Source of the DNA: Escherichia coli
GTDB taxonomy: Bacteria > Pseudomonadota > Gammaproteobacteria > Enterobacterales > Enterobacteriaceae
Assembly: GCF_044324785.1 (NCBI RefSeq)
Contig: NZ_CP172127.1
Reading direction: 5' to 3' (one strand)
Length of the DNA stretch: 64,000 nucleotides
Position 1 is the first letter of the stretch. Every line of letters starts with the position of its first letter. Below, piece after piece: positions 38,025 to 60,530 of the stretch. Under the pieces are notes generated by a model that ran no database searches, was not told the DNA's origin, and was given only the letters and a program-made list of their open reading frames with translations. Made by a program: the position numbers and the translations under genes.

Positions 38025-38128
38025 GTTCATGCCGGAAGCGGCATGAACGCCTTATCCGGCCTACAAAACTTTGCAAATTCAATATATTGCAATATCCGTG
38101 TAGGCCTGATAAGCGTAGTGCATCAGGC
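38025..38128. repeat. REP/BIME cluster downstream of glyA
   Basis: Hairpin GTTCATGCCG...CGGCATGAAC, then REP copies GCCTTATCCGGCCTAC and inverted GTAGGCCTGATAAGCG...CATCAGGC. Confidence 0.8.
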
Positions 38129-48429: not shown

Positions 48430-48437
48430 TTTATAAA

Positions 48438-48477
48438 ATGCCGGATAAGGCGTTCACGCCGCATCCGGCATGTTTTT
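48438..48477. repeat. REP-type palindrome between yphB and yphA, also serving as terminator
   Basis: ATGCCGGAT aaggcgttcacgccgc ATCCGGCAT followed by GTTTTT. Confidence 0.75.
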
Positions 48478-58920: not shown

Positions 58921-59661
58921 ATGCTGCAAAATATTCGAATTGTGCTGGTGGAGACGTCACACACCGGCAATATGGGTTCTGTTGCCCGTGCCATGAAAAC
59001 AATGGGATTAACCAATCTGTGGCTGGTTAATCCACTGGTGAAACCTGACTCCCAGGCGATTGCCCTGGCAGCAGGGGCCAGCGATGTGATTGGTAATGCT
59101 CATATCGTCGATACGCTCGACGAAGCGTTAGCCGGTTGTAGCCTGGTGGTGGGCACCAGCGCACGCTCCCGCACGCTGCCGTGGCCGATGCTCGACCCGC
59201 GCGAATGTGGTCTGAAAAGCGTCGCTGAAGCGGCAAATACCCCGGTGGCGCTGGTTTTTGGTCGTGAGCGTGTTGGCTTGACCAATGAAGAGTTGCAGAA
59301 ATGCCATTATCATGTCGCGATTGCTGCGAACCCGGAATACAGTTCGCTGAACCTGGCGATGGCGGTTCAGGTTATTGCCTATGAAGTGCGCATGGCCTGG
59401 CTGGCAACTCAGGAAGATGGCGAACAAGTCGAGCATGAAGAGACGCCGTATCCGCTGGTCGATGATCTGGAGCGTTTTTATGGTCATCTGGAACAAACGC
59501 TGCTGGCAACCGGTTTTATTCGTGAAAACCATCCGGGGCAGGTGATGAATAAATTGCGCCGTCTGTTTACCCGTGCGCGCCCGGAAAGCCAGGAATTGAA
59601 TATCCTGCGCGGGATTCTGGCTTCTATAGAGCAGCAGAATAAAGGTAATAAGGCCGAATAA
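58921..59661 (+). CDS. trmJ: tRNA (cytidine/uridine-2'-O)-methyltransferase TrmJ (YfhQ)
   Basis: 246 aa SpoU-class methyltransferase. Confidence 0.95.
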
Positions 59662-59669
59662 CAGTGGTT

Positions 59670-59753
59670 GCCTGATGCGACGCTTAATGCGTCTTATCAG
59701 GCCTACAATGTACAGAACCGTAGGTCGGATAAGGTGTTCACACCGCATCCGAC
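59670..59753. repeat. REP/BIME pair between trmJ and iscR
   Basis: GCCTGATGCGACGCTTAATGCGTCTTATCAGGCCTAC and GTAGGTCGGATAAGGTGTTCACACCGCATCCGAC in inverted arrangement. Confidence 0.8.
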
Positions 59754-59799
59754 AACAGGTACAAACGCCACGATAAAAAAATGGCACTGAAGGTTAAAT

Positions 59800-59880
59800 A
59801 CCCGACTAAATCAGTCAAGTAAATAGTTGACCAATTTACTCGGGAATGTCAGACTTGACCCTGCTATGCAATACCCCCAC
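59800..59880 (+). promoter_or_regulatory. iscR promoter with tandem IscR type-1 binding sites
   Basis: AAATACCCGACTAAATCAGTCAAGTAAATAGTTGACC and AATTTACTCGGGAATGTCAGACTTGACCC upstream of iscR; match the recalled IscR autoregulatory sites. Confidence 0.7.
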
Positions 59881-59930
59881 TTTTACAATAAAAAACCCCG
59901 GGCAGGGGCGAGTTTGAGGTGAAGTAAGAC

Positions 59931-60419
59931 ATGAGACTGACATCTAAAGGGCGCTATGCCGTGACCGCAATGCTTGACGTTGCGCTCAACTCTGAAGCGG
60001 GCCCGGTACCGTTGGCTGATATTTCCGAACGTCAGGGAATTTCCCTTTCTTATCTGGAACAACTGTTTTCCCGTCTGCGTAAAAATGGTCTGGTTTCCAG
60101 CGTACGTGGACCAGGCGGTGGTTATCTGTTAGGCAAAGATGCCAGCAGCATCGCCGTTGGCGAAGTGATTAGCGCCGTTGACGAATCTGTAGATGCTACC
60201 CGTTGTCAGGGTAAAGGCGGCTGCCAGGGCGGCGATAAATGCCTGACCCACGCGCTGTGGCGTGATTTGAGCGACCGTCTCACCGGTTTTCTCAACAACA
60301 TTACTTTAGGCGAACTGGTTAATAACCAGGAAGTGCTGGATGTGTCTGGTCGTCAGCATACTCACGACGCGCCACGCACCCGCACACAAGACGCGATCGA
60401 CGTTAAGTTACGCGCTTAA
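59931..60419 (+). CDS. iscR: Fe-S cluster regulator IscR
   Basis: 162 aa Rrf2-family; cluster-ligating Cys residues (CQGKGGC...C). Confidence 0.97.
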
Positions 60420-60530
60420 TAAAAAGTATTCAGAATCAGGCCGGAGTGTTTAACACTCCGTAAACACGGTCGTACATCCAGCCGGTAGCCTGGTTCCTTG
60501 CATTGAGTGATGTACGGAGTTTATAGAGCA

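Follow-up and report, generated by a model that had tools for sequence, protein, structure and literature searches.

The window, a 64,000-nt stretch of an Escherichia coli genome read on one strand, contains suhB (minus strand), trmJ (plus strand), iscR (59931-60419, plus strand), and iscS, in this order. The spacer between trmJ and iscR is 269 nt long, and a pair of REP sequences lies within the part of it that forms the trmJ 3' UTR; a 401-nt query covering this region (59560-59960) is 100% identical to strain CFSAN018748. The initial annotation had described two REP-like palindromes in inverted arrangement at 59670-59753, immediately 3' of the trmJ stop codon and about 50 bp before the IscR operator, and had suggested that they may insulate the isc promoter from trmJ read-through. 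The description of the palindromes and their arrangement is borne out by the analyses given below, and the boundaries were right to within one base (59669-59754). The location immediately after trmJ likewise holds, as does the location upstream of the operator; the distance does not, since 43 nt rather than about 50 separate the end of REP2 from IscR site A. Both operator sites are outside the repeat. Coordinates are given in Table 1. Farther downstream, the iscR-iscS spacer (60420-60529) matches the Rfam iscRS family, the "iscR stability element" (RF01517, 131.7 bits), a known RyhB-related structure.

Table 1. Features of trmJ and of the trmJ-iscR spacer in the 64-kb window.
Feature	Position	Strand	Sequence or composition	Basis or comment
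trmJ CDS, 246 aa, stop TAA 59659-59661	58921..59661	+		ORF list; RefSeq annotation of identical/near-identical E. coli records
Spacer from trmJ stop to REP1	59662-59668	+	CAGTGGTT (8 nt)	
REP1, Z2-type, inverted (iREP)	59669-59706	+	TGCCTGATGCGACGC-TTAAT-GCGTCTTATCAGGCCTAC	
Linker, 13 nt	59707-59719	.	AATGTACAGAACC	Between both tag ends
REP2, Y-type, direct orientation	59720-59754	+	GTAGGTCGGATAAGGTGTTCACACCGCATCCGACA	
IscR type-1 sites A and B	A 59798-59822, B 59823-59847	+	1 and 3 mismatches	Motif search; 0 expected by chance
Sole C-rich, G-poor stretch of the spacer	59860..59899	+	C 15, G 2 in 40 nt	In iscR leader

The two REPs face each other through their tags: the CTAC tag of REP1 (59703-59706) and the GTAG tag of REP2 (59720-59723) lie on either side of the linker. 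Both are imperfect palindromes, REP1 with a 5-nt loop and REP2 with a 2-nt internal loop; as RNA hairpins they are predicted to have energies of -22.0 and -17.3 kcal/mol, respectively. The stem proper of REP1 (GCCTGATG) starts at 59670, which is 8 nt past the trmJ stop, and in the window strain it can be lengthened by pairing of GTGG (59664-59667) with the CTAC tag. Inverted-repeat detection recovers both palindromes together with the mutual complementarity of REP1 and REP2, and the predicted minimum-energy fold of the pair consists of two separate hairpins. Folded as RNA, the 111-nt stretch that includes the pair reaches -46.6 kcal/mol versus -25.6 +/- 3.6 kcal/mol for shuffled sequences (z -5.8), and none of 200 shuffles folds as well; REP consensus words are matched here 4 times versus 0.18 expected and 5 times versus 0.97 expected.

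REPs are non-autonomous repeats that are recognised and recombined by the REP-associated tyrosine transposase (TnpA_REP); E. coli K-12 has 584 copies (Ton-Hoang et al., 2012). They are defined as extragenic imperfect palindromes of 30-40 nt, mostly found 3' of genes, with a GTAG tag on the 5' side of the palindrome's foot and a mismatch in the stem, and binding of TnpA_REP needs the non-complementary stem bases (Ton-Hoang et al., 2012). REP1 and REP2 are 38 and 35 nt long, form stems of 13-14 pairs with an internal mismatch or loop in each predicted hairpin, carry the tag (as its complement, CTAC, in the inverted REP1), and are extragenic, flanked by the trmJ stop (59661) on one side and the iscR start (59931) on the other. 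BIME-2 elements combine a z2 and a y REP with a short linker, and their copy number differs between strains (Ton-Hoang et al., 2012). In the window, one Z2 and one Y REP are in opposite orientation with 13 nt between them, and this unit is single, while other strains have two or three copies with a period of 91 bp. The segment is almost certainly one BIME-2-type unit. REP1 is assigned to Z2 by its arms (CCTGATG...ATCAGG) and long stem, and REP2 to Y by the arms (T)CGGATAAGG...CATCCG, in comparison with the subtype consensus sequences. An open reading frame of 40 aa at 59668-59790 was dismissed as a chance ORF across the repeats.

Other REPs in the 64-kb window are found at about 38048 and 48436. 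At 38031-38115 there is a BIME-1/RIP-like element, in which a Y-type iREP is followed by a long linker with an IHF-type core (AAATTCAATATATTGCAA) and then by GTAGGCCTGAT...; at 48436-48475 there is a lone Y-type REP that lacks the GTAG tag and has TGTTTTT directly after it, and this hairpin could double as an intrinsic terminator.

The orthologous spacer of K-12 is 451 nt long and contains three tandem 91-bp copies of the Z2-Y unit; a check of the K-12 iscR-trmJ array showed it to be homologous to the window segment. The K-12 locus is listed as "BIMEs2 2662088-2662353, 265 bp, iscR-yfhQ" (Sutormin et al., 2019, table DS3; W3110 coordinates). Judged from its sequence, the window segment is a one-unit allele of this iscR-yfhQ(trmJ) BIME-2, already catalogued in K-12.

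Within the species, the trmJ-iscR junction was matched in 5,425 of 5,426 complete E. coli genomes and the REP-bearing allele in 3,989 of the 5,426; by coverage, about 26% of the genomes are without a REP-bearing allele at this locus. E. coli P276M (NZ_CP044293.1) is the only genome whose best match to the junction is a 69-nt REP match elsewhere, and its trmJ-iscR junction may be rearranged or missing. Allele types were sampled from 60 evenly spaced matches in this collection, whose make-up is skewed by laboratory K-12 and O157 strains: 30 have one unit, 6 have two units (for example, L002), 8 have three (as do K-12, L001, and L004), 15 have no REP and a boxC-like repeat, and 1 has no junction match. 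The REP-less allele of E. coli strain 149 (L003:397-525) has the G+C-rich repeat CCCCTCGCCCCTTCGGGGAGAGGGTTAGGGTGAGGGG in place of the BIME, and its trmJ is one codon shorter, with TGA as the stop codon. The core of this repeat is present at a median of 16 copies per E. coli genome; judged against the BoxC consensus, the repeat resembles the known BoxC family.

Nine one-unit alleles of E. coli were aligned with the allele of E. albertii, which has the matching Z2-Y pair at the matching offset with both hairpins intact. Variation is almost wholly within the repeat, and these alleles hardly differ between 59755 and the iscR ATG. Five alleles of B2 type (L086, L088, L089, L090, and L092; alignment columns 67-88) have lost both tags, with CTAC changed to CTGT and GTAG to CCAG or CAAG, and are therefore dead as TnpA_REP substrates; they keep both hairpins fully paired. 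The inner stem of the Y REP, GGTG/CACC in the window strain, switches jointly between this form and GGCG/CGCC across alleles. Over the 9 distinct alleles, 97.5% of stem cells are paired, tag-less alleles included, with one compensatory pair. Three changes in the REP1 core alter one side of the stem only, and each of them still allows a G-U pair on the trmJ-sense strand. Covariation across the 9 distinct alleles falls short of significance, with 135 of 500 shuffles scoring equally well, so that the pairing pattern is no more than a hint.

Beyond E. coli, a TrmJ scan gave 80 species-representative loci, with both genes present in 76. An E. coli-type REP arm occurs in at least 28 of the 76 loci, by a regex count that is a minimum because the REP arms of other genera diverge. 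A degraded iREP is found together with one REP in Salmonella arizonae and diarizonae, the number of REPs in Citrobacter species ranges from none to two, and Kluyvera and Enterobacter have REPs of their own; two Superficieibacter genomes have genus-specific REPs, one of them with four REP-arm matches. A boxC-like motif is found in nine species, and such motifs are seen at the equivalent place in Klebsiella michiganensis, K. oxytoca, Pseudocitrobacter, and Lelliottia. In Cedecea, Mangrovibacter, Franconibacter, and Atlantibacter the intergenic regions are just 125-130 nt long, and in Citrobacter werkmanii (L015) there is no spacer at all: the trmJ ORF runs into IscR site A, with its stop within GTCAAGTAA. 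The isc promoter block is visible and conserved in the related genera whose sequences were compared. The site just 3' of trmJ is thus a permissive spot that has been occupied repeatedly, and its occupant, of whatever kind, is dispensable for isc regulation.

This variability bears on one account of the pair, in which it is a neutral passenger, a relic of REP/TnpA_REP activity that measurably affects neither trmJ nor iscR nor DNA topology. Polymorphism both in presence and in copy number, the concentration of changes in the repeat between invariant flanks, the tag-less B2-type alleles, and the lack of significant covariation are all consistent with a passenger. The same comparisons also hold points against it, however: E. 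albertii keeps the pair with intact hairpins, the stems stay paired even where the tags are gone, and structured repeats recur just 3' of trmJ in many genera. In addition, published REPs in 3' UTRs usually have some effect (Dar and Sorek, 2018; Harris, 2026, preprint). A neutral passenger is a possible reading but not a probable one.

No U-tract follows either hairpin (the tails read AATGTACAG and ACAGGTACAAAC), so the pair was rejected as an intrinsic terminator, and a terminator scan of the plus strand from 59662 to 59930 found none. Nor does the REP pair look like a Rho loading site: it has no C-rich (C>G) tract, and its C content is about equal to its G content. The C-rich stretch in the iscR leader (Table 1) is a candidate site at which Rho could load on read-through RNA that is not translated. 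On the minus strand, a terminator-like hairpin and T-run lie at 59895-59909, within the same leader, and could stop antisense transcription from the iscR side.

In K-12, a putative Rho termination region is listed at 2662135 on the minus strand, with a Rho score of 3.06 and a p value of 3e-9 (Adams et al., 2021, supplement 2). This coordinate corresponds to window position 59927, which is 4 nt 5' of the iscR ATG and about 170 nt past the REPs; it adjoins the C-rich stretch and a CCCCGGGCAGGGG hairpin. The score of 3.06 is confounded because the 800-nt windows that are compared include the isc promoter, and the region has three conceivable origins: transcripts are attenuated within the iscR leader, read-through from trmJ is terminated there, or bicyclomycin induces the isc promoter. 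Within the K-12 BIME, no Term-seq 3' end is called (Adams et al., 2021); trmJ may be too weakly expressed for 3' ends to be called there. Among two of the three trmJ rows in the Term-seq table of that study, the sole 3' end labelled trmJ is a very strong one at K-12 2663263 on the minus strand; its Rho score is 0.62, and it is assigned to no Rho termination region (Adams et al., 2021). This end corresponds to window position 58981, 60 nt inside the trmJ ORF, in a stretch whose predicted fold does not stand out (z -1.06). Should the majority of trmJ transcripts stop at this point, the REP pair would receive little transcription. A literature search for co-transcription of trmJ/yfhQ and iscR found no paper.

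Published work on REPs gives the expectation for such an element. REPs withstand degradation by 3' exonucleases, and many transcripts that are terminated by Rho have their steady-state ends at REPs (Dar and Sorek, 2018). REP325, with 12 hairpins, is both a stabiliser of the upstream transcript and a partial terminator; it cuts downstream expression about 8-fold, in part through Rho, while fragments of it with 2-4 hairpins show no Rho dependence and are not BCM-sensitive (Harris, 2026, preprint). In tandem gene pairs separated by REPs, expression is biased to the upstream gene, and terminal REPs do not uniformly lengthen mRNA half-lives (Harris, 2026, preprint). In the supplement of that study, iscR appears only within a differential-expression list.

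These results allow the suggestion of the initial annotation to be weighed, namely that the pair is a dedicated insulator that stops trmJ transcription so that isc is driven solely by its IscR-controlled promoter. The idea is plausible in kind: trmJ has no intrinsic terminator, REP325 lowers downstream expression, REP-separated tandem genes favour the upstream gene, and K-12 has a BCM-sensitive boundary at the trmJ/iscR junction. The pair itself, however, has neither a U-tract nor a C>G tract and is short in comparison with attenuating arrays, REP fragments of its size class are not BCM-sensitive, the K-12 Rho coordinate lies well beyond the REPs and is confounded as described above, and the K-12 BIME contains no called 3' end. 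The distribution of the element counts further against insulation. Copy number varies from 1 to 3, roughly one in four E. coli genomes lacks the REP allele with the promoter unchanged, and therefore any effect is non-essential; four genera have only short spacers, one Citrobacter trmJ ends inside IscR site A, and the promoter block is conserved whatever sits upstream. PiscR-lacZ fusions at other loci also keep IscR-dependent regulation, in constructs for which the paper does not give the upstream limit of the reporter. Insulation as an essential function is excluded, as the element is dispensable, and a dedicated insulator is improbable.

The explanation that we prefer, and that we consider very probable, is that the segment is a BIME-2 unit acting as a pair of 3'-UTR hairpins, which block exonucleases and attenuate read-through in a leaky manner. 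The pair would be transcribed within the first ~95 nt of the trmJ 3' UTR and would form two stable hairpins. Transcripts of trmJ, having no intrinsic terminator, would probably run on to a Rho-dependent stop downstream, plausibly by way of the C-rich tract, and would then probably be trimmed by 3' exonucleases back to the REP hairpins, which would define and protect the 3' end of the trmJ mRNA; any reduction of read-through would be leaky at most. With REP1 only 8 nt from the stop codon, some interference with the terminating ribosome may modestly lower TrmJ output, and in its DNA form the Y REP offers a potential gyrase site. Shielding of the isc promoter would be a by-product, neither dedicated nor required. 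At the trmJ-iscR locus some strains have the unit amplified to two or three copies, and in others it is absent or replaced. Whether the one-unit allele has a measurable effect at the RNA level is a separate matter, for which we put the chances at about even.

The distance between REP1 and the stop codon suggests another reading, in which the pair is a translational tuner: the terminating ribosome would have to melt REP1, and stalling, mRNA cleavage, tmRNA rescue, and less TrmJ would follow. According to a "<16 nt" rule reported in the literature, a REP closer than that to a stop codon is expected to interfere with the terminating ribosome. The offset of 8 nt is the same in all ten aligned alleles of E. 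coli and E. albertii, and with the lengthened stem of the window strain the distance may be as short as 3 nt from the stop. On the other side, the RepRanger supplements include neither trmJ nor iscR, and in the boxC allele the stop codon is displaced and the REP is gone, apparently at no cost. A role in the tuning of translation is doubtful.

At the level of DNA rather than RNA, the pair could be a sequence-specific target of DNA gyrase that relieves supercoils between trmJ and the isc promoter, a role that is compatible with one in the RNA. The K-12 three-unit BIME-2 is a mapped, rifampicin-resistant gyrase cleavage hot spot, with 3 cleavage sites for ciprofloxacin (Cfx), 6 for rifampicin plus ciprofloxacin (Rif+Cfx), 0 for microcin B17, and 4 for oxolinic acid (Sutormin et al., 2019), and among the table entries that were considered it is one of few BIME-2 loci with multiple sites. 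BIME-2 elements in general are over-represented among cleavage sites, with signals that go up under rifampicin genome-wide, and cleavage is more frequent at Y REPs than at Z2 REPs (Sutormin et al., 2019). For an element of the size in the window the record is divided: among the entries considered, some of one-pair size (83 bp) are cleaved (yegE-alkA, 2/2/0/2 sites; cvpA-dedD, 0/2/1/0 sites), but most BIME-2 entries of about 80-87 bp are listed with zero cleavage sites. Moreover, the inner stem of the window Y REP differs from that of K-12, and the boxC-type and spacer-less alleles indicate that a gyrase site is dispensable here. A gyrase role for the one-unit allele is conceivable but on the whole unlikely, and the hairpin-pair explanation given above is retained.

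The element is ordinary and strain-variable, and its allelic series is typical of BIME-2. The trmJ-iscR spacer thereby offers a natural series of boxC-type alleles and alleles with 1, 2, or 3 REP pairs in front of an invariant, well-studied promoter, which makes it a handy test bed for the effects of REPs on read-through, mRNA ends, translation termination, and gyrase activity. A bolder and very improbable idea is that the bases after trmJ are a landing pad that has been re-occupied recurrently across the Enterobacteriaceae by REP, BIME, and boxC-like repeats, with the E. coli alleles serving as a natural dial. If this were true, the alleles would set IscR-independent trmJ transcription into isc, or gyrase activity ~110 bp upstream of the isc transcription start, and strains would differ in basal capacity for Fe-S cluster assembly with promoter and protein unchanged.

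The pair can be placed among known systems by its likenesses and differences. Like intrinsic terminators, it presents G+C-rich stem-loops at the end of a gene, but unlike them it has no U-tract after its hairpins. REPINs, which are RAYT-mobilised REP doublets, also consist of inverted REPs with a short spacer that can pair as one long hairpin; the concept was defined in Pseudomonas, however, and in the window one REP is a Z2 and the other a Y, and the predicted minimum-energy fold keeps the hairpins separate. BIME-1/RIP (RIB) elements resemble it in having two REPs with facing tags, but BIME-1 contains a Z1 REP, and its linker is long and conserved and includes an IHF site, whereas the linker in the window (59707-59719) is 13 nt long with no IHF-type core, and membership was rejected on these grounds. 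The REP325/naRNA4 array, which has 12 hairpins between yjdM and yjdN, is similar as a set of REP hairpins between two co-directional genes but differs from the two hairpins in the window in number. Both REPs have sub-threshold matches to the Rfam naRNA4 family (RF02564; E 3e-5 and 7e-4, with scores of 40.3 and 34.2 bits), because naRNA4 is itself built of REPs (the REP325 array); with these scores and a third of 33.3 bits all below the gathering threshold of 59.5, membership in naRNA4 was rejected.

The locus itself is already known: descriptions of REPs and BIME-2 elements go back decades, and the K-12 copy has been tabulated both as a BIME-2 and as a gyrase hot spot. Compared with the K-12 iscR-yfhQ BIME-2, the window element differs in having one unit instead of three, in a few bases of the linker and loop, in the inner stem of the Y REP (GGCG/CGCC in K-12, GGTG/CACC in the window), and in its tags, which are both intact in the window while the promoter-proximal Y REP of K-12 is without GTAG. 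It shares with that element the locus, the 8-nt offset from trmJ, the Z2-linker-Y order, and the downstream junction (ACAGGTACAAACGCC).
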